The position numbers and the translations under genes are program-made. A model generated the notes under the pieces. That model was not told where the DNA came from, ran no database searches, and saw only the letters and a program-made list of their open reading frames with translations. Positions 1-12,629 of a DNA stretch of 13,326 bases are shown here, one piece after another (position 1 is the stretch's first letter; every line of letters starts with the position of its first letter). The stretch comes from a virus: the UHGV virus genome UHGV-0203667; one strand, given 5' to 3'.

Positions 1-531
1 ATGTTATTTCAGAAAGATAAAGAATCAGAAAACAAAAAGCTTTTTAAAGCAATAGTAAAAATGTTCTTTAAGGAGGCCGCACAGTTCGGGGCTACTATCC
101 TGCTTATTGGCCCTTGGGCAATGGCTATCTTCTTTTACCCTGCTACCTTATTTATTGGCAGTAGCAAGTTCGGCAATGGACCGTTTCATGTGGATACTGG
201 TTTTATAGATTTTCTCCTGATCCGCCCTATAAATGCTGTTCTCAATGCTTTCTACTTCCCCACTAGTCTGGAAGGGTGGGCGGTCACCTGGGGCGTTTTA
301 GGCTTAGCATTTGCAATATGGGTGATCGGCTTTTGGTGGAATGCGATCTGTGTTCTCCTTGATATCGATGGCGGAAAAAGCCGTAGAAGCGGTGGTAGCA
401 GTGGAGCAGGTATTTATGCACATGTAGGTACCAGGGGAGCTAGTGTTACCGCAGGTACCCGATTCGCTGGCGGCTGGCTGAGCATAGGCAAACGCGGCGT
501 TAGTTGGAGAAAAAGCAAAAAACTGTTCTGA
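1..531 (+). CDS. Predicted membrane protein with two hydrophobic segments and a Gly/Ser/Arg-rich basic C-terminal tail; possibly truncated at the window edge
   Basis: ORF of 176 aa starting at base 1; hydrophobic stretches (ATILLIGPWAMAIFFYPATLFIG; WAVTWGVLGLAFAIWVIGFWWNAICVLL); tail GGKSRRSGGSSGAGIY...; followed directly by an intrinsic terminator. No family recognised. Confidence 0.5.
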   Translation: MLFQKDKESENKKLFKAIVKMFFKEAAQFGATILLIGPWAMAIFFYPATLFIGSSKFGNGPFHVDTGFIDFLLIRPINAVLNAFYFPTSLEGWAVTWGVLGLAFAIWVIGFWWNAICVLLDIDGGKSRRSGGSSGAGIYAHVGTRGASVTAGTRFAGGWLSIGKRGVSWRKSKKLF

Positions 532-539
532 CCTACCAG

Positions 540-565
540 GGGGCCATCACGGCCCCTTTTTATTT
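540..565 (+). terminator. Rho-independent terminator: GGGGCC / atcac / GGCCCC followed by TTTTTATTT
   Basis: Perfect 6-bp GC stem (540-545 / 551-556), 5-nt loop, T-tract 557-565, 9 nt after the stop codon of the 1-531 ORF. Confidence 0.75.
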
Positions 566-578
566 ATCCCTCAATTAA

Positions 579-611
579 CCCCTATTTATCCCCTATTTAA
601 TGCCTATTTAT
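579..611. repeat. Three tandem 11-bp repeats (CCCCTATTTAT / CCCCTATTTAA / TGCCTATTTAT), helical-phase AT-rich array
   Basis: Read directly: units at 579-589, 590-600, 601-611, immediately downstream of the terminator. Confidence 0.55.
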
Positions 612-691
612 TGATTTAATCCGTTTTATGTCACAACCGCCCGGTTGACAGAGTAATAGAGAGGGTGTAACCCTTTTTCGTAATACTAATA

Positions 692-707
692 AAATCAATA
701 AGTTAGC
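692..707. repeat. 16-bp exact direct repeat AAATCAATAAGTTAGC, copy 1 (copy 2 at 8424-8439); contains an IHF-consensus-like WATCAANNNNTTR
   Basis: Identical 16-mer at both places; flanks also align with an indel (TAATACTAATA-AAATCAATAAGTTAGC vs TAATATTGTGATCTAAATCAATAAGTTAGC). Confidence 0.6.
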
Positions 708-1446
708 TTAATAAGCCTTTTCTCTATTTTTGTCAAATTTAACATACCCTAAAAAACTGCAAAATCTGGCTGCAAGATTATCTGCAGCTGGATTTCTTAC
801 ACCTCATTTTGTGGTATCACCCTGGCTAGTTTGTGCATAAATTGAACAGTTTTTAACATTTCCTCCTCACCTGGTAACCACACAAAAAGCTAAAAACGAG
901 GCACAGATAATCTTAGAGGCCTGTTTTCTTGTTATCACTCTGGAAACGCCGTAGAAGTGATTTTGATGAAAGATGACCTACCCTATTACACCCCTATTTT
1001 TTGTTATCACAATTGCATCCTGTGCGGTGTATGGCTATGTACTGAAAGCGGTTTTGGGTGTGGGTGTCAGAAATATCCATTAGCGGTATTAATACCTGTC
1101 AGATGTTCGTCTGAGGTGCCAGGCAGGCGCTCCCCTACCTCCCTTTTTTCTTCTAACAATTCTCAAATATCCGACCACTACTGACCACGTTGCTATTATG
1201 TTAATTCTTAAGCTTTGCTGTATGTTGTGCACATTATTTATTCAGGTGGCTGTACGTAAATTCTGTGCCCACTGATCATGATTTTTAAATCAGATTTTGT
1301 AGTGCGCTTTATTAGTGTAGATAAGATCTATTATGTTAAATGCAATTTTCCCAACCCTTCAAATCAATGACTTACGTGTAAGCATGCACTAACACCCCAC
1401 ACAGCACATTAGCCGTATAGATGGCTATACCCCACATATTTGATTG

Positions 1447-1469
1447 TTTTGTAGTCATTCCCCTGATCA
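1447..1469. repeat. Imperfect ~23-bp direct repeat TTTTG(T/C)AGTCATT..C..TGAT, copy 1 (copy 2 at 2177-2201); shares the CAGTCAT core also seen at 1974 and 2161
   Basis: Manual alignment of 1447-1469 with 2177-2201; CAGTCATACT occurs exactly twice (1972-1981 and 2161-2170). Confidence 0.4.
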
Positions 1470-2016
1470 TTTAACCAGTATAGCTTGTTATCTGCAGACC
1501 ACAAAATAGGAATTTACATCTGATTAACATAATCTGTTAGCATGATCACTATTACCCACACAACAATAACCCCATGTAAGCCTCTTCAGGCAATTTATCG
1601 GCGTGTTGGTGTGAACAGTCTTTCATGTTCTTTATGAATGCATTGTCCTGTGTGAGGGAAGGATGGACTGCCTCAGGGGCCATACTTATGATGCCCGGTC
1701 AACATAGCTATTGATAAAATCAACGGGTGTTGATCTACATATTTCCCACACATGAGAGGAAATCAGAGCAAAGAGAGAGGAGAGAGGTTTGTTAGTCACA
1801 TATGGTGATTTGAGCTCATCTCAAACCTTCTACGAAGGCCTTTGCTAGTCAAAATAGGTCAATTGACGGCTAATACAGAGTAAAAAATCAGATGCAATCA
1901 CTCCCCACCTGTTGGGATTAACGGCCCCGAGTCAAGGCCTATGCAACGAGGGTATTTCCTACAACCCCTTTCAGTCATACTCAGGCACCACACCCCGGTA
2001 AATATTACCCTACTAC

Positions 2017-2328
2017 CCCGGAAGATTTCTCCGCACTACCTGTAAAATATTTTTACTACTAACACCCTCGAGACGAGGGCTATTTGCACGAGTTTAACGC
2101 TCTCGGGAAGAGCTATAGGCGATTCTACCTGTGAAGAATTTTCACACCTGTGTGTTTATACAGTCATACTTTCCTGTTTTGCAGTCATTGCACCCATGAT
2201 ACACAGCCTCTAACTACTGAAGATTTCTCACTACTTAACCACCATACCTACCCACACCCCTGAGAATTTCTCACCACTACTACCGAAGATTTCTCACTAG
2301 TACCCCTGAGAATTTCTCACTCTAATAG
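2017..2328 (+). repeat. Iteron-like array: six copies of core GA(A/G)(A/G)ATTTCTCAC, the last three exactly 23 bp apart
   Basis: Cores at 2021-2033 (degenerate), 2133-2145 (degenerate, GAAGAATTTTCAC), 2219-2231, 2262-2274, 2285-2297, 2308-2320; each preceded by a C-rich tract (CCCC/CTACC). TGAGAATTTCTCA is itself a 6-bp inverted repeat. Confidence 0.6.
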
Positions 2329-2438
2329 ATAAAGGAATAGATCAATAAAAAGACCTCCCCCCTAACCCCCAGGGGGAATGGGGAGGGATCAGAGAGTGGG
2401 GAAGGTTTTCTAAGGGAAAAGCTTAACCCACAAATGAA

Positions 2439-2467
2439 AGCCTAAAGAGCATGAGCGACTCTTTAGG
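2439..2467. other. Strong hairpin: 10-bp stem GCCTAAAGAG / CTCTTTAGGC with 9-nt loop
   Basis: Perfect complementarity read from sequence; no flanking U-tract on the plus strand. Confidence 0.4.
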
Positions 2468-2839
2468 CAATCTGTGTGGGGTGACAATGTATTCCATACA
2501 TGACACGTCACCCAATTGTGTGTGGGGAGCGTAGTGCTATAGCACGTAGCTTTATAGTGTGGAGTCCGGATAAGAGACTTCTGTTTCCAATCCGGACCGT
2601 TTAAGCGAGTGGTTTCTCGCGCGGGTGCACGCACACATATATAAAGGATACACTCATAAATCGAAAATAAGGCCCCTAAATGGCCTTCTGGCTGCATTAA
2701 CCTGTGTGAGTAGTGCAATTGCATTACCTGACCTCTAAATCGCGTTAGAATCGATTTTAGAGCGCTTAAGGCAAAAGTGCTCTCCCTCCCTTGTGGACTT
2801 GCTTGTACCTATAGCACACCTAAATGATAATAATTCTCA

Positions 2840-2868
2840 TTGACAATTGGTTGACAATATGATAAGAT
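2840..2868 (+). promoter_or_regulatory. Candidate sigma70 promoter P0 (TTGACA, 17-bp spacer, TAAGAT) within a tandem TTGACAAT duplication
   Basis: -35 TTGACA at 2840-2845, -10 TAAGAT at 2863-2868; a second TTGACAAT at 2851-2858; sits about 35 nt upstream of the RBS of the small ORF at 2904. Confidence 0.35.
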
Positions 2869-2903
2869 TATAAATAGGGGGAGAAACAGATCCGGAGGTC
2901 AAT

Positions 2904-3053
2904 GTGGAAATTACAGATGTAATAGCGATCATCAACCTGGCTGTACTGTGGTGCGGTGTTGCCTACATAGCCGGAGTAACTGCAATCGACAACCTTGAAG
3001 AAAAAATGATAGATAAATACAAAAAGATTGTTGACAATCTCGCAAATAGCTGA
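2904..3053 (+). CDS. Small hydrophobic peptide (49 aa, GTG start), predicted single transmembrane helix with charged C-terminus
   Basis: SD GGAGG at 2894-2898, 5-nt spacing to GTG 2904; translation (V/M)EITDVIAIINLAVLWCGVAYIAGVTAIDNLEEKMIDKYKKIVDNLANS; stop TGA 3051-3053. Below the length cutoff of the ORF track. Overlapped by the minus-strand ORF 2868-3317, judged spurious. Confidence 0.4.
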   Translation: MEITDVIAIINLAVLWCGVAYIAGVTAIDNLEEKMIDKYKKIVDNLANS

Positions 3054-3059
3054 TAAAAT
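3031..3059 (+). promoter_or_regulatory. Near-consensus sigma70 promoter P1: TTGACA, 17-bp spacer, TAAAAT, with an A-rich upstream tract
   Basis: -35 at 3031-3036, -10 at 3054-3059; spacer contains the recurrent motif TCTCGCAAA (3038-3046); A-rich 3001-3026 resembles an UP element. Confidence 0.6.
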
Positions 3060-3065
3060 ATAAAT

Positions 3066-3141
3066 CATAGGGTAATTCTCATCATAGTGAATTTCCTTAA
3101 ACAAAAATGCGGGGGCTTGTCTTAAGTTCCCGTTTCTTTTT
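3066..3141 (+). ncRNA. Candidate ~75-nt small RNA or attenuated leader transcript, from P1 to the hairpin/U-tract at 3110-3141
   Basis: Strong promoter followed about 45 nt downstream by a 9-bp stem CGGGGGCUU / AAGUUCCCG (two G-U pairs) and UUUCUUUUU; no ORF in between. Confidence 0.3.
3110..3141 (+). terminator. Intrinsic terminator/attenuator in the leader upstream of the 3183 gene (also the likely 3' end of the small-peptide transcript)
   Basis: Stem 3110-3118 / 3124-3132, loop GUCUU, U-tract 3133-3141. Confidence 0.5.
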
Positions 3142-3182
3142 AACCGTATATCATTCTGATTCGAATTATAGGAGGCCCCGTT

Positions 3183-3398
3183 ATGGCAAGCAACGGACCG
3201 ACTAGCCCCCTGGTTAGCTGGACTACTGATGAGATCGTCGAAAACGTGCTCAGCGGCAAGTTTTATAAAAATTCTGTTTATGCTTTTATCCGTCGTAATA
3301 AAGGAAAATATCCACACATTGAAGCGGCAATTTTAGAACTGAACCGTCTTCGCCTTGAGCGTGAGCTGGCTAAATACACCAACAACATTGATAAATAA
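3183..3398 (+). CDS. Small hypothetical protein (71 aa), possibly regulatory
   Basis: SD AGGAGG at 3170-3175 with 7-nt spacing to ATG 3183; stop TAA 3396-3398; first gene after P1 and the attenuator. Confidence 0.75.
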   Translation: MASNGPTSPLVSWTTDEIVENVLSGKFYKNSVYAFIRRNKGKYPHIEAAILELNRLRLERELAKYTNNIDK

Positions 3399-3411
3399 TT
3401 ATGGGGGAACT

Positions 3412-4308
3412 ATGGCAAGTAATTACGGGGAGGTTTTTAATCCCCATTTCGAACGCCTCATTCAGTACACTTTTGATAAACCAGTAGCAACAACAATTGC
3501 TAATAAAAAGACTGGAAAAACAAAAGAGCGATTTAATTTAGACCTGATAGAGGTAACAATTTATGGAAAAATGGCAGGTTTTCATTTAAACGGGCAAGAA
3601 ATATTTATCTCAGAGCAGACCTTAGCAAAAATATGTGGTGTGAGTGATAGAAAAATCATCGAATCTATCAAAACTCTGGAAAATGCCGGGCTTATTTCTA
3701 AAGAAAGCCGGAAAGGTATGTCTAACATTTACAAACTGTTAATTACTCCTTCTCAAATCTGCAAAATGTGTGATGAACAGAAGATAGAACCAATGAGTAA
3801 TGCAGGTGGTGAAGATAAACAGCCTCAGGAAGCCCCAAAACAAGCCACACAGCAAGCTAAAAAGGCTAAAGTAGTGCAATTGCCTACCCAAGACACTAAA
3901 GCGCCTCAAATTAACGCTGTTAGTGACAAGCCACGCCGGGGCCGTCCTGTGAAAGATGTAACCGATGGGGGCTGGATTGTCCTGGGTGAGAGTGAAGCTA
4001 AAGATAGAATGCGCTCACTGTGGGAAAGCAAATACAAAGGTTTAAATAAACGTTGCCCGATCCGTTTGTCAAAGATTCAGGAGGATTTTTACACCACAGA
4101 GGAGGTAATACGCCATAAAGGCAATAGAGACGGTGAAATCTGGAAACCGGAAGAATACTGGCATTTAACCAGACCTGTTTTTATTTTTGCAAATAAACTT
4201 ATTGGGATGGGATTTGAAATATTGTTAGATCAAACTTACGGAGATTATCCTGAAATATTGTGGAGAAATGTTAGAAAGAATAAAAAAGGCATTTTAGAGT
4301 TTAGATAA
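3412..4308 (+). CDS. Winged-HTH DNA-binding protein with AT-hook-like linker (KPRRGRPVK) and a C-terminal domain of unknown function; putative replication initiator or regulator
   Basis: ATG 3412 after a GGGGG SD (the track's upstream TTG at 3355 has no RBS); N-terminal wHTH-like segment FISEQTLAKICGVSDRKIIESIKTLENAGLISKE; low-complexity linker EDKQPQEAPKQATQQAKKAK; 299 aa. Confidence 0.8.
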   Translation: MASNYGEVFNPHFERLIQYTFDKPVATTIANKKTGKTKERFNLDLIEVTIYGKMAGFHLNGQEIFISEQTLAKICGVSDRKIIESIKTLENAGLISKESRKGMSNIYKLLITPSQICKMCDEQKIEPMSNAGGEDKQPQEAPKQATQQAKKAKVVQLPTQDTKAPQINAVSDKPRRGRPVKDVTDGGWIVLGESEAKDRMRSLWESKYKGLNKRCPIRLSKIQEDFYTTEEVIRHKGNRDGEIWKPEEYWHLTRPVFIFANKLIGMGFEILLDQTYGDYPEILWRNVRKNKKGILEFR

Positions 4309-5076: not shown

Positions 5077-5116
5077 GTTTTATCTCTTCGATTTATTTAT
5101 TTTCGACTCACTTTAA

Positions 5117-5159
5117 CCCCTTCCGGGGCTTGACGTTGTCAAGGCCGCAGCTATGCGGC
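5117..5159 (+). promoter_or_regulatory. Three consecutive hairpins (CCCC-ttcc-GGGG; CTTGAC-gtt-GTCAAG; GCCGCA-gcta-TGCGGC), copy 1 of a conserved structured element (copy 2 at 12577-12622)
   Basis: Read from sequence; lies 20 nt upstream of ATG 5180 in the 4588/5180 intergenic region; copy 2 keeps both stems through compensatory changes. Confidence 0.5.
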
Positions 5160-5179
5160 TCTAATTTAAGGAATTCCAA

Positions 5180-5683: not shown

Positions 5684-6118
5684 ATGAATATTGAAGAAAT
5701 GATAGTTGAATTCGAAGAGGGTGATTTCCTGGAAGAAGGGGAGTTTAAATACTCCCGTTTTAAACAGGCGTTATTTAGCAGCGATGATAAACCCCACGTT
5801 AGTGATCTTAACGACGATGATTTATGTCGCTGGGTATGCACCCGCTTATATGAAGATGGAAAGTATACAGGCCAAAACTTTCCAAATCTCTATTTCAAAG
5901 CACAAACATTTGAGGAAGGGCAAAGAGTGAAAAACCTGGTCGATAAAATGCTGTCAGCCGGATATTTGCATAAAGAATTATTAAATCCTAAAGCTGAAAG
6001 CAAGCGCCATTATATTTTTGTGTGGTCTGTGGGGGATAAGTGCCCACTGCATGGGAGTCCTTCCAGGACCTTAGCTAAAGCTAAGCCCGTTGGGTCTGTT
6101 AAGCGTAAAGGCAAATGA
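5684..6118 (+). CDS. Hypothetical acidic protein (144 aa), positioned like a tail assembly chaperone
   Basis: GAGAGGG SD with 7-nt spacing to ATG 5684 (the track start at 5678 is only 1 nt from the SD); acidic N-terminus; ends with basic tail KRKGK; 2 genes upstream of the tape measure gene. Confidence 0.7.
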   Translation: MNIEEMIVEFEEGDFLEEGEFKYSRFKQALFSSDDKPHVSDLNDDDLCRWVCTRLYEDGKYTGQNFPNLYFKAQTFEEGQRVKNLVDKMLSAGYLHKELLNPKAESKRHYIFVWSVGDKCPLHGSPSRTLAKAKPVGSVKRKGK

Positions 6119-8439: not shown

Positions 8440-8462
8440 TGACCGGATAAACTCCAGGCAAG

Positions 8463-8493
8463 AAAAAAGCCCCTAAGTGTTAACAAAGGGGCT
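8463..8493 (-). terminator. Intrinsic terminator for the leftward head operon (AGCCCCT / 12-nt loop / AGGGGCT followed by UUUUUU on the minus strand)
   Basis: 7-bp stem 8468-8474 / 8487-8493; A6 on the plus strand (8463-8468) gives a U-tract on the minus-strand RNA; the plus-strand side lacks a U-tract. Confidence 0.55.
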
Positions 8494-8523
8494 CTTCTCC
8501 GGTATCCTTTTGATGCGGGGCAA

Positions 8524-11978: not shown

Positions 11979-12458
11979 TTGATCACCTGCGATTTAAATT
12001 AACTCCCCTCAAAGGGCTCAGGTATAACCTCTCAAACCACGACAGGCTCGGGCCGAAAAGTTATGCCGGAAATCTAAAGGGGGATTGATATAAGGAGAGG
12101 GAGATAGCCCCGCACCGTCCAAGCGGGGGCTATTCCATATGGGGAAAACCAACAACAGTTGGCTGATAGTTCACTGCATGGTTACGGTTGCTAGAGAGCA
12201 CTATCACGAAAGGCACTCCCCCGAATCAGTTCAGGCTGCGGTCACATCAGCGGGGAAATACCTTTCGGGATAGCTACCCACACCGAAAACCCGCAAAAGA
12301 AAACTGTGTGGATAACTAGCCCAATAGGAGAATTAATCGACCACTCTAAGATGATCAGGGTAGTGTTATTTATAAGGCGGCACCGCTACCTGGTCGCCGT
12401 TACTTTGGAGGAAAATACGGCAAATCACCTTCGCTAAATGATTCACGGTATACTGTAT

Positions 12459-12487
12459 ATTATATCAGTATTTACTCACATTGTCAA
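12459..12487 (-). promoter_or_regulatory. Consensus sigma70 promoter P2 for the leftward head operon: TTGACA, 17-bp spacer, TATAAT on the minus strand
   Basis: Minus-strand -35 is the complement of 12482-12487 and -10 the complement of 12459-12464; 22 of 29 positions identical to P1 (3031-3059); leaves a ~470-nt untranslated leader before ATG 11978. Confidence 0.6.
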
Positions 12488-12576
12488 CACCCTGATTATA
12501 TAAATTCTAATAATTAGCGTAGTAACGGTATTTTCAGACCTCTATCAATCCCATCAATACGTCACCTCATCCCTGA

Positions 12577-12622
12577 CCTGCTTTGCAGGCTTGGCACACA
12601 GCCAAGGTCGCAGCTATGCGAC
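12577..12622 (+). promoter_or_regulatory. Three-hairpin element copy 2 (CCTGC-ttt-GCAGG; CTTGGC-acaca-GCCAAG; GTCGCA-gcta-TGCGAC)
   Basis: Same three-stem architecture as 5117-5159; stem 2 differs by A>G paired with T>C, stem 3 by C>T paired with G>A; loop GCTA conserved. Confidence 0.5.
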
Positions 12623-12629
12623 TCCTATC

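Follow-up and report, generated by a model that had tools for sequence, protein, structure and literature searches.

The DNA analysed here (called the window, at its full length of 13,326 bp) is UHGV virus genome UHGV-0203667, a complete circular Escherichia coli plasmid with phage head and tail genes, and it carries two related elements built of abutting hairpins. Copy 1 lies at locus A, the gap between the genes for proteins of 162 and 147 amino acids (aa), and copy 2 at locus B, a divergent regulatory region between a leftward structural operon and the rightward 40-aa peptide and helix-turn-helix (HTH) genes. The initial annotation, made from the sequence of the window, had described a three-hairpin element present twice, with paired base changes, upstream of rightward genes, and this placement of both copies was borne out.

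Both copies read as three abutting perfect hairpins (Table 1), in agreement with the folds calculated using RNA and DNA parameters. The minimum-energy RNA fold of each copy consists of three abutting hairpins (z = -3.4, with 0 of 200 shuffled sequences folding as well), the same arrangement was obtained, with stronger scores, using DNA parameters (z = -5.0 and -5.1), and the complementary strands of both copies fold alike. As had been noted, the differences between the copies in hairpins 2 and 3 preserve pairing, CTTGAC/GTCAAG of copy 1 corresponding to CTTGGC/GCCAAG of copy 2 and GCCGCA/TGCGGC to GTCGCA/TGCGAC. Hairpin 1 is unlike in sequence between the copies (CCCC-ttcc-GGGG and CCTGC-ttt-GCAGG), yet forms a hairpin in both. 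A repeat finder identified a 22-nucleotide (nt) block common to the two copies, of which the two mismatches are the paired positions of hairpin 3, and the 16-nt pattern of hairpin 3 occurs at only these two places in the window. Both copies are real, but a count of two did not hold: a scan for triple abutting perfect hairpins returned four sites in the window, compared to 0.16 per shuffled sequence, the additional sites being located at 1788-1840 and 6050-6100.

Table 1. Positions and sequences of the hairpin cassettes and genes of the window
Feature	Position	Strand or direction	Hairpins or description
Copy 1	5117-5159	read on +	CCCC-ttcc-GGGG / CTTGAC-gtt-GTCAAG / GCCGCA-gcta-TGCGGC
Copy 1, family orientation		-	GCCGCA-tagc-TGCGGC / CTTGAC-aac-GTCAAG / CCCC-ggaa-GGGG
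Copy 2	12577-12622	read on +	CCTGC-ttt-GCAGG / CTTGGC-acaca-GCCAAG / GTCGCA-gcta-TGCGAC
Copy 2, complete cassette	12572..12627	family orientation -	56 nt
Alpha cassette	6050..6100	+	GTCCT-tcc-AGGAC / CTTAGC-taaa-GCTAAG / CCC-gtt-GGG
Fourth window cassette	1788..1840	+	TCAC-atatg-GTGA / TTTGAG-ctcat-CTCAAA / CCTTC-tac-GAAGG
Second-type hairpin cassette	2064..2098	+	ACCCTCGAGACGAGGGCTATTTGCACGAGTTTAAC; 35 nt, resident in the ORF-poor region
Two TGTGTGGG linker motifs	2473..2526	+	of the kind flanking and separating arrayed cassettes
Region poor in open reading frames (ORF-poor region)	531-3183		~2.6 kb
86-aa HTH protein, variable membrane protein		rightward
Replication initiator		rightward	HTH_36; PHROG 'replication initiation'
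Small proteins of 162, 147, 144 and 61 aa; tape-measure protein of 700 aa		rightward
Tail-completion, Dit-like, 83-aa, major capsid and 111-aa proteins		leftward

Presence and absence at the two loci

Approximately 30 members of the plasmid family were gathered for comparison, and the counts given per locus cover 24-28 of them. Locus A exists in five structural variants. Eight plasmids contain only ...CACTTTAACCCCTTCCGGGGCTCTAATTTAAGG, i.e. hairpin 1 without hairpins 2 and 3, and in the window and one relative (L027) an extra 30 nt encompassing hairpins 2 and 3 (~5131-5160) lies between GGCT and GGCT, a 4-nt microhomology at the insert junction. Among 26 relatives, hairpins 2 and 3 of copy 1 are present in two (the window and L027) and absent from 24. 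Copy 1 therefore does fold as the three-hairpin unit first described, but hairpin 1 is resident, standing alone in eight relatives, and the added piece is the 30 nt of hairpins 2 and 3. In five further plasmids (variant 'A2': L005, L009, L012, L018 and L019), a different hairpin insert of 35-36 nt, flanked by TTTAAC, is found on the other side of hairpin 1, and twelve plasmids have unrelated sequence with a 9-bp hairpin, the loop of which holds a further 33-nt insert in six of the twelve. The ribosome-binding site and start codon are unchanged in every variant of the locus.

At locus B, copy 2 is present in eight of 28 relatives and absent from 20, as an indel of 56 nt. The empty allele, for example that of L010, reads CTCATCGCATCTATCAT, and the window reads CTCATC followed by the 56 nt and CATCTATCAT. 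Carriers of copy 2 span two flank backgrounds, one plasmid of the usual carrier background is without it, and the variants at this locus include a further pair-preserving change (CCTGC/GCAGG versus CCTAC/GTAGG). Both copies are presence/absence polymorphisms gained or lost as a unit, of 30 nt at locus A and 56 nt at locus B. The downstream genes are kept in the plasmids from which hairpins 2 and 3 or copy 2 are absent, so that, as judged from this comparison of alleles, the copies appear to be dispensable for downstream expression.

A dispersed cassette family and its plasmid

Both copies are optional members of a dispersed family of perfect palindromes whose structure is conserved. When 24 whole plasmids were aligned using MAFFT, many hairpin-rich indel blocks of 30-56 nt became apparent, and a catalogue compiled from the middle-hairpin pattern in combination with the triple-hairpin structure comprises at least 17 loci. 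Each cassette consists of three abutting perfect Watson-Crick hairpins of 3-6 bp, 6-7 bp and 3-6 bp, ~43-56 nt as a whole, often with TGTGTGGG as left and CCTGTG as right border. The middle hairpin has the form YTTNNC-loop-GNNAAR, in which the TT/AA at the base and the C-G at the top are invariant or nearly so and the inner pairs covary; it appears as CTTGAC in copy 1, as CTTGGC in copy 2 and as CTTAGC, TTTAGC, TTTAAC, TTTGAG and TTTGGC in other members.

Cassettes occur in either orientation (~10 loci one way and seven the other, without a consistent link to transcription direction) and are intergenic, next to or inside hairpins, arrayed in the ORF-poor region or, occasionally, in frame in genes. 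The catalogued sites lie after the HTH gene, in the ORF-poor region (~10 sites), at locus A, inside two small genes, in two intergenic gaps of the leftward operon and in its leader, and at locus B; a cassette is also located just after the tape-measure stop codon in 12 of 24 plasmids. The alpha cassette adds 51 nt, in frame, to the 144-aa gene (5684-6118), at a point five codons ahead of its stop; without the cassette the gene encodes 127 aa. It is present at this site in the window, L007, L009 and L027 and absent in 23 others, and its middle hairpin, CTTAGC/GCTAAG, represents a third pair-preserving version beside CTTGGC/GCCAAG and CTTGAC/GTCAAG. A near-identical alpha cassette is found at a non-homologous intergenic site (window ~10523) in L021, L031 and L008, and a reverse-complemented one at ~13274 in L006. 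The occurrence of identical cassettes at non-homologous loci indicates that gains are required.

The fourth cassette of the window is a 53-nt insert in the ORF-poor region between TTTG(Y)TAGTCA repeats, and at least 15 relatives have the empty allele. In relatives, the second-type cassette of 35 nt adjoins hairpin 1 of locus A, and a reverse-complemented copy lies at window ~10190 in L018, L019 and L008. Arrays in the ORF-poor region follow the pattern ...TGTGTGGG-H1-H2-H3-CCTGTG... in the alignments of L018, L010, L031 and L003, and TGTGTGGG itself occurs seven times in the window compared to 0.32 expected. The same region contains iteron-like 11-nt repeats (CCCTATTTA) at 569-609 and 981-999 and four 21-nt repeats (ACTACTGAAGATTTCTCACTA) at 2213-2322, the TGTGTGGG/CCCACACA motifs change strand around position 2000, and most hairpin cassettes of the relatives are held there. 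It may constitute the origin plus a reservoir of cassettes.

Once reverse-complemented, the two copies can be aligned column by column with 15 further cassettes. In an alignment of 18 related cassettes, 97.4% of stem cells are paired and 13 of 16 pairs have changed on both sides, compared to a pairing of 38-49% when partners were shifted by one column as a control. A covariance model (R1) was built from 15 cassettes, the two copies being left out. In the window it matched the seed member at 6051-6100 on the + strand with 62.4 bits and, outside the seed, 1790-1844 on the + strand (E = 3.8e-6). Copy 2 was recovered on the minus strand with 19.9 bits (E = 1.1e-4; E = 2.9 only on the + strand), and copy 1, also on the minus strand, with a marginal 11.3 bits (E = 0.039), so that the membership of copy 1 rests on its homology to copy 2. 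Across 25 family loci, 62 matches representing 31 distinct sequences were obtained, in which 98.2% of 452 stem cells are paired, 114 cells are double changes and 13 of 15 pairs covary. The search for further compensatory pairs among relatives thus yielded many, and strengthened the core inference of the initial annotation that pairing rather than sequence is conserved.

No G-U or U-G wobble pair is found among the 452 stem cells of the 31 distinct matches, which suggests that the cassettes are palindromes at the level of DNA. Such a complete lack of wobble is unusual in RNA under structural selection and is expected of DNA palindromes. Triloops close 40 of 63 hairpins, and 24 of these 40 are GNA on the strand opposite to the family orientation, compared to none of 40 on the family strand; DNA mini-hairpins with a d(GNA) triloop and a C-G closing pair are exceptionally stable.

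The length difference between filled and empty alleles is 48-56 nt, with further cases of 30, 33 and 36 nt. The direct repeats at their junctions measure 0, 0, 0, 1, 2, 2, 4, 4, 4, 4, 6, 8 and 10 nt and read ACAG, TTTG, TGTGTGTGGG, GGCT, TTTAAC, GTAAATAT, CAAA or nothing; they are thus not a fixed-length target duplication of the transposase kind, and no common target motif was seen at the junctions. Several events lie beside or inside existing hairpins, namely the two inserts of locus A, the one of 33 nt in the loop of the 9-bp hairpin and one nested in the L008 alpha cassette. Searches of the plasmid proteins using Pfam, PHROGs, NCBIfam and PDB sequences recognised no family of transposases, recombinases or nucleases.

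The cassettes are confined to one lineage of phage-like E. coli plasmids of ~13 kb. Searches of 5,426 complete E. coli genomes using blastn with copy 2 and the alpha cassette returned no chromosomal copies, only plasmids of the family of the window, and no cassettes were found in deposited phages. Exact-pattern scans for the element gave nothing in IMG/VR or GTDB genomes, and neither did the alpha pattern in IMG/VR. A looser middle-hairpin pattern gave 12 matches in IMG/VR, approximately the number expected by chance, all scoring 20 bits or less with R1, and the two that were inspected (L043 and L032) are not triple hairpins.

The carrier belongs to a narrow group. The protein encoded just 3' of copy 1 (147 aa) is also present on an ENA contig of 13,445 bp from a k = 119 assembly, a length equal to 13,326 plus the 119-base k-mer overlap, indicating that the window is a complete circular molecule. 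Whole-window megablast matches of 91-93% identity were obtained to circular plasmids of 13.2-13.7 kb in seven of the 5,426 complete E. coli genomes, relatives of 13.2-13.7 kb are likewise held in PLSDB, and the phage collection contained no megablast match to the window. Homologues of the capsid protein that are 92-97% identical are annotated in E. coli on contigs of 13.4-14.3 kb, and a single cluster of capsid sequences comprises 441 members. A protein-guided search for remoter relatives found none in IMG/VR or GTDB genomes and only three loci in JGI metagenomes, and one divergent relative, L015 (capsid 79% identical), has zero matches to R1. The family is typed as non-mobilizable by MOB-suite, relatives of the tape-measure protein in phages are only ~25% identical, and the window, with its phage head and tail genes, has no terminase, portal or integrase gene. 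The plasmid has the look of a phage satellite borne on a plasmid, of a kind not yet described, or of a defective mini phage-plasmid, and no description of the family, its protein accessions or its cassettes was found in the literature.

Two relatives depart from the common form. L008 (NZ_CP043822.1, 39,610 bp) is a head-to-tail trimer of a 13.2-kb unit with small differences and frameshifts between the units; it may be a genuine multimer, which would matter for headful-size packaging, or an artefact of long-read assembly. L016 (GCA_002463705.1 contig NTNY01000053.1, 30.1 kb) combines a family member with genes for aminoglycoside phosphotransferase, a DDE transposase and further cargo on one contig, and would be a cointegrate or a resistance-carrying derivative. 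The replication-initiator region (3183-4308) is mosaic across the family, with initiators of 284-315 aa, and in some plasmids the initiator is preceded by an additional HTH_36-like gene of 128 aa or by a gene of 167 aa.

The leftward structural genes are preceded by a minus-strand promoter (12487 to 12459, TTGACA-17-TATAAT with TG, 12 of 12 consensus matches) that reads toward the capsid operon. A LexA-box-like palindrome, TACTGATATAATATACAGTA (CTG-N10-CAG), overlaps its -10 and is conserved in sequence in all family members seen, which suggests that the structural genes are under SOS control. Between this promoter and the first structural gene lies an ORF-free leader of ~475 nt (11979-12459, minus strand), of which the central ~300 nt are nearly invariant across the family, though the plasmids differ by 7-9% overall. 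The leader folds extensively (-156 kcal/mol consensus) and is possibly a structured RNA; it varies too little for covariation to be tested, displays one compensatory pair (CCGAC/GTCGG versus CCAAC/GTTGG) and has no Rfam match.

Spread, upkeep and possible function of the cassettes

The reading favoured, as a whole and with moderate confidence, is that the cassettes are small invasive palindromic DNA rather than antiterminators or promoters, and that the two copies represent one subtype of these interspersed cassettes, typically of 48-56 nt, which would spread by template switching and have little function. A cassette would fold while the DNA is single-stranded, in replication or recombination, and a stalled polymerase would switch template at short microhomologies, with the result that the cassette is copied into a new site or is skipped and thereby deleted. 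The stems would be kept perfect mostly by templated correction within each hairpin (quasipalindrome template switching), with selection for foldability during spread possibly helping, and selection on an RNA serving the neighbouring genes would not be needed to explain the compensatory changes. Template switching can create hairpins and repair stems in one event, mimicking compensatory substitution (PMC8794818). The element probably does little or nothing specific where it now lies and, if transcribed, would add stable stem-loops to the transcript.

Several points weigh against this reading. No insertion event was observed, and the distances of the flanking sequences do not polarise gain versus loss at either locus; polarisation by this means failed because the distances do not separate carriers from non-carriers, indicating that the history has been scrambled by recombination. 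No other locus yielded the variant that could have served as donor of copy 1 (GCCGCA/TGCGGC with CTTGAC/GTCAAG). Part of the catalogue was derived from perfect-stem scans, which are biased against wobble pairs, but the G-U-tolerant model alignment likewise contains none. Moreover, template switching alone does not obviously explain the unit length of ~51 nt, the YTTNNC..GNNAAR middle hairpin and the strand-specific GNA loops, three features that hint at protein recognition or a function. Given the uniform length, conserved middle hairpin and strand-biased loops, a dedicated enzyme or a single-strand function therefore stays a serious alternative.

Movement of the same family by a dedicated structure-specific enzyme, which would recognise the folded triple hairpin on one strand, is considered unlikely, though it is among the stronger competitors. 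Candidates would be a single-strand transposase of the HUH/Y1 type, a recombinase that acts on the TGTG-type linkers or a nuclease supplied by a helper phage (compare RAYT-REP and the end hairpins of IS200/IS605 TnpA). Such an enzyme would account for the uniform unit of 48-56 nt with its conserved architecture, the near-invariant positions and covarying middle pairs of the middle hairpin, the strand asymmetry of the GNA triloops, the recurring TGTGTGGG / CCTGTG boundary motif and the insertions adjoining or inside other hairpins. It is opposed by the lack of any detected transposase, recombinase or nuclease domain in the plasmid proteins, by junction repeats of 0-10 nt with no common target motif, and by the absence of copies from E. 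coli chromosomes and known phages, into which an enzyme of the host or helper should have introduced them. A similarly low probability is assigned to the broader proposal that the cassettes are an undescribed class of ultra-small mobile DNA, read as a folded GNA-triloop strand by an enzyme of the plasmid, host or helper phage, or else functional single-strand modules multiplied on purpose by a satellite-like plasmid (priming or packaging signals, or decoys), and in both cases pairing would be kept by selection and not only by templated correction.

A cis-acting RNA of the rightward transcript (a put/nut-like antiterminator, an RNase processing site or a stabiliser), acting on the tape-measure operon and the small-peptide/HTH genes, was among the roles first proposed for the copies and is quite improbable. 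The stable + strand fold (z = -3.4), the location of both copies upstream of rightward genes and the pairing kept between the copies and in the locus B variants (CCTGC/GCAGG versus CCTAC/GTAGG) are what this role would predict. However, most relatives with the same downstream genes are without the element, cassettes lie in both orientations to transcription and within coding sequence, G-U pairs are lacking, R1 matches both copies better on the minus strand (copy 2: E = 1e-4 versus 2.9), and neither an Rfam match nor a + strand promoter upstream of copy 2 was found. Because the copies are dispensable by comparison, and cassettes occupy at least 17 loci in both orientations, one of them in frame in a gene, without wobble pairs, a locus-specific RNA or promoter role is unlikely, and the antiterminator, processing or stability site and activator-dependent late promoter put forward in the initial annotation were not supported.

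More specific tests agreed. An Rfam scan of the whole window at E <= 1 gave nothing at either copy; its sole match was ctRNA_p42d, weak and sub-threshold (E = 0.24), at 8458-8498. The latter sequence is a strong hairpin with T/A runs on both sides, lying between the convergent tape-measure and tail-completion genes, and is probably a bidirectional terminator. As to antitermination, no curated RNA family matched the copies, boxA/boxB motifs not being searched separately, and the fixed position of put/nut sites is not reproduced, the copies being absent from most relatives with no + strand promoter found upstream. An intrinsic terminator scan called nothing at 5117-5159 or 12577-12622, the tails TCTAATTT and TCCTATCA giving no fit to a G+C hairpin with a T run. 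Integron attC, tRNA-like and small-ribozyme readings were set aside, as there are no unpaired junctions and no integrase, and a G4-type primase entry site (three hairpins plus CTG) was rejected since the CTG flank and the GNA loops are on opposite strands.

A DNA regulatory site, be it a weak sigma-70 or activator-dependent promoter (TTGAC/TTGGC ... TATGCG) or operators for the small HTH proteins of the plasmid, is the least probable of the readings. The -35-like TTGACG and TTGGCA of hairpin 2, the TTGTCA placed by the copy 1 insert 18 nt upstream of TCTAAT and the operator-like TATCA/TGATAG repeats around copy 2 are met by a promoter scan with no call at either copy, a hexamer spacing that differs between the copies (16 versus 18), a TATGCG without the conserved final T, stems that covary freely, unlike protein half-sites, and an element that is optional. 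Sigma-70 promoters are defined by -35 and -10 hexamers 16-18 nt apart and by A2 and T6 in the -10. The earlier statement that no canonical sigma-70 promoter lies nearby did not hold: the consensus promoter at 12487 to 12459, the sole strong one in the vicinity, is on the minus strand and faces away from copy 2. Sigma-54 and sigma-70 readings of hairpin 2 were ruled out by spacing and missing -12 or -10 elements. A T7-promoter reading of CGACTCACTTTA (5104-5115, just upstream of copy 1; core match to CGACTCACTATA) was rejected as a single chance-level occurrence, absent in the half of the family with other intergenic sequence.

The cassettes also call for caution: pair-preserving changes of the textbook compensatory kind, seen between two copies, were no sign of a functional RNA tied to its locus, and the absence of wobble together with the optional, multi-locus distribution point to DNA-level processes. 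The origin, spread and stem upkeep of short palindromic repeats (REP, Rickettsia palindromic elements, mitochondrial hairpin elements) are still poorly understood, and most known examples belong to organisms or organelles in which manipulation is difficult. The present family as a whole resides on a 13-kb plasmid of E. coli, for which nature supplies many alleles with and without cassettes, so that gain, loss and stem repair would be open to direct measurement in a tractable host. The carrier is itself unusual in combining capsid, tape-measure, Dit-like and tail-completion genes and an apparently SOS-controlled structural operon while lacking terminase and portal, and possibly represents a type of phage satellite not described before.

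Comparison with known systems

The put sites of HK022 and nut sites of lambda are fixed, essential, promoter-proximal and strand-specific. The window resembles them in having two related stem-loop elements in one phage-like genome with pairing kept between the copies, but the cassettes are optional, occupy multiple loci in both orientations and belong to no Rfam family. The promoter-early stem-loop (PeSL) cassettes of T4-type phages reportedly carry a sigma-70 early promoter and flank small ORFs. Both systems are short repeated stem-loop motifs at gene boundaries of phage-like genomes, tied to modular indels and recombination; unlike PeSL, the present cassettes have no detected promoter and are themselves the inserted unit. 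Features of miniature inverted-repeat transposable elements were looked for and not seen, the junction repeats being variable and the ends (TGGGR... / ...YCTGT) not inverted repeats. Of the features of IS200/IS605- or RAYT-type substrates, hairpins and strand-asymmetric loops are seen, with no common target motif at the junctions and no HUH protein detected on the plasmid, though an enzyme may act in trans.

The REP/BIME sequences of E. coli, and the REPINs mobilised by RAYT, are short extragenic palindromes, often clustered, which form single-strand hairpins and lie in both orientations at gene boundaries. The cassettes are likewise short, clustered, hairpin-forming and present in both orientations, but have no REP consensus, no chromosomal copies in the 5,426 E. 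coli genomes and no associated RAYT, are triple hairpins and also occur in coding sequence. The Rickettsia palindromic elements (RPE), chromosomal sequences of ~100-150 bp in dozens of copies, are said to insert in frame in genes as well as in intergenic DNA and to be tolerated as extra peptide. The cassettes share both kinds of site but measure ~51 nt and are confined to a lineage of 13-kb plasmids.

Double-hairpin elements (DHEs) of Allomyces and chytrid mitochondrial DNA (Paquin, Laforest & Lang 2000, cited in PMC7218506) and the GC clusters of yeast (PMC4478555) complete the comparison. DHEs and the cassettes are alike in measuring tens of nt, in having at least two adjacent hairpins whose pairing is kept as the sequence drifts, in being optional among close relatives and in being intergenic, occasionally genic, with no enzyme of their own known. 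The cassettes differ in residing on a bacterial plasmid with phage genes rather than in an organelle, in having three hairpins rather than two, in the YTTNNC..GNNAAR middle hairpin and the TGTGTGGG-type linkers, and in having no sequence relationship to DHEs. Held against the invasive palindromic mini-elements (DHE/RPE/GC-cluster, a class defined by analogy and not a homologous family), the cassettes display all of its features. The closest analogues are thus DHEs and GC clusters, RPE, REP/BIME and PeSL, none of them homologous, and the cassettes are read as short invasive palindromic repeats that take the form of ~51-nt hairpin triplets on a phage-like plasmid.

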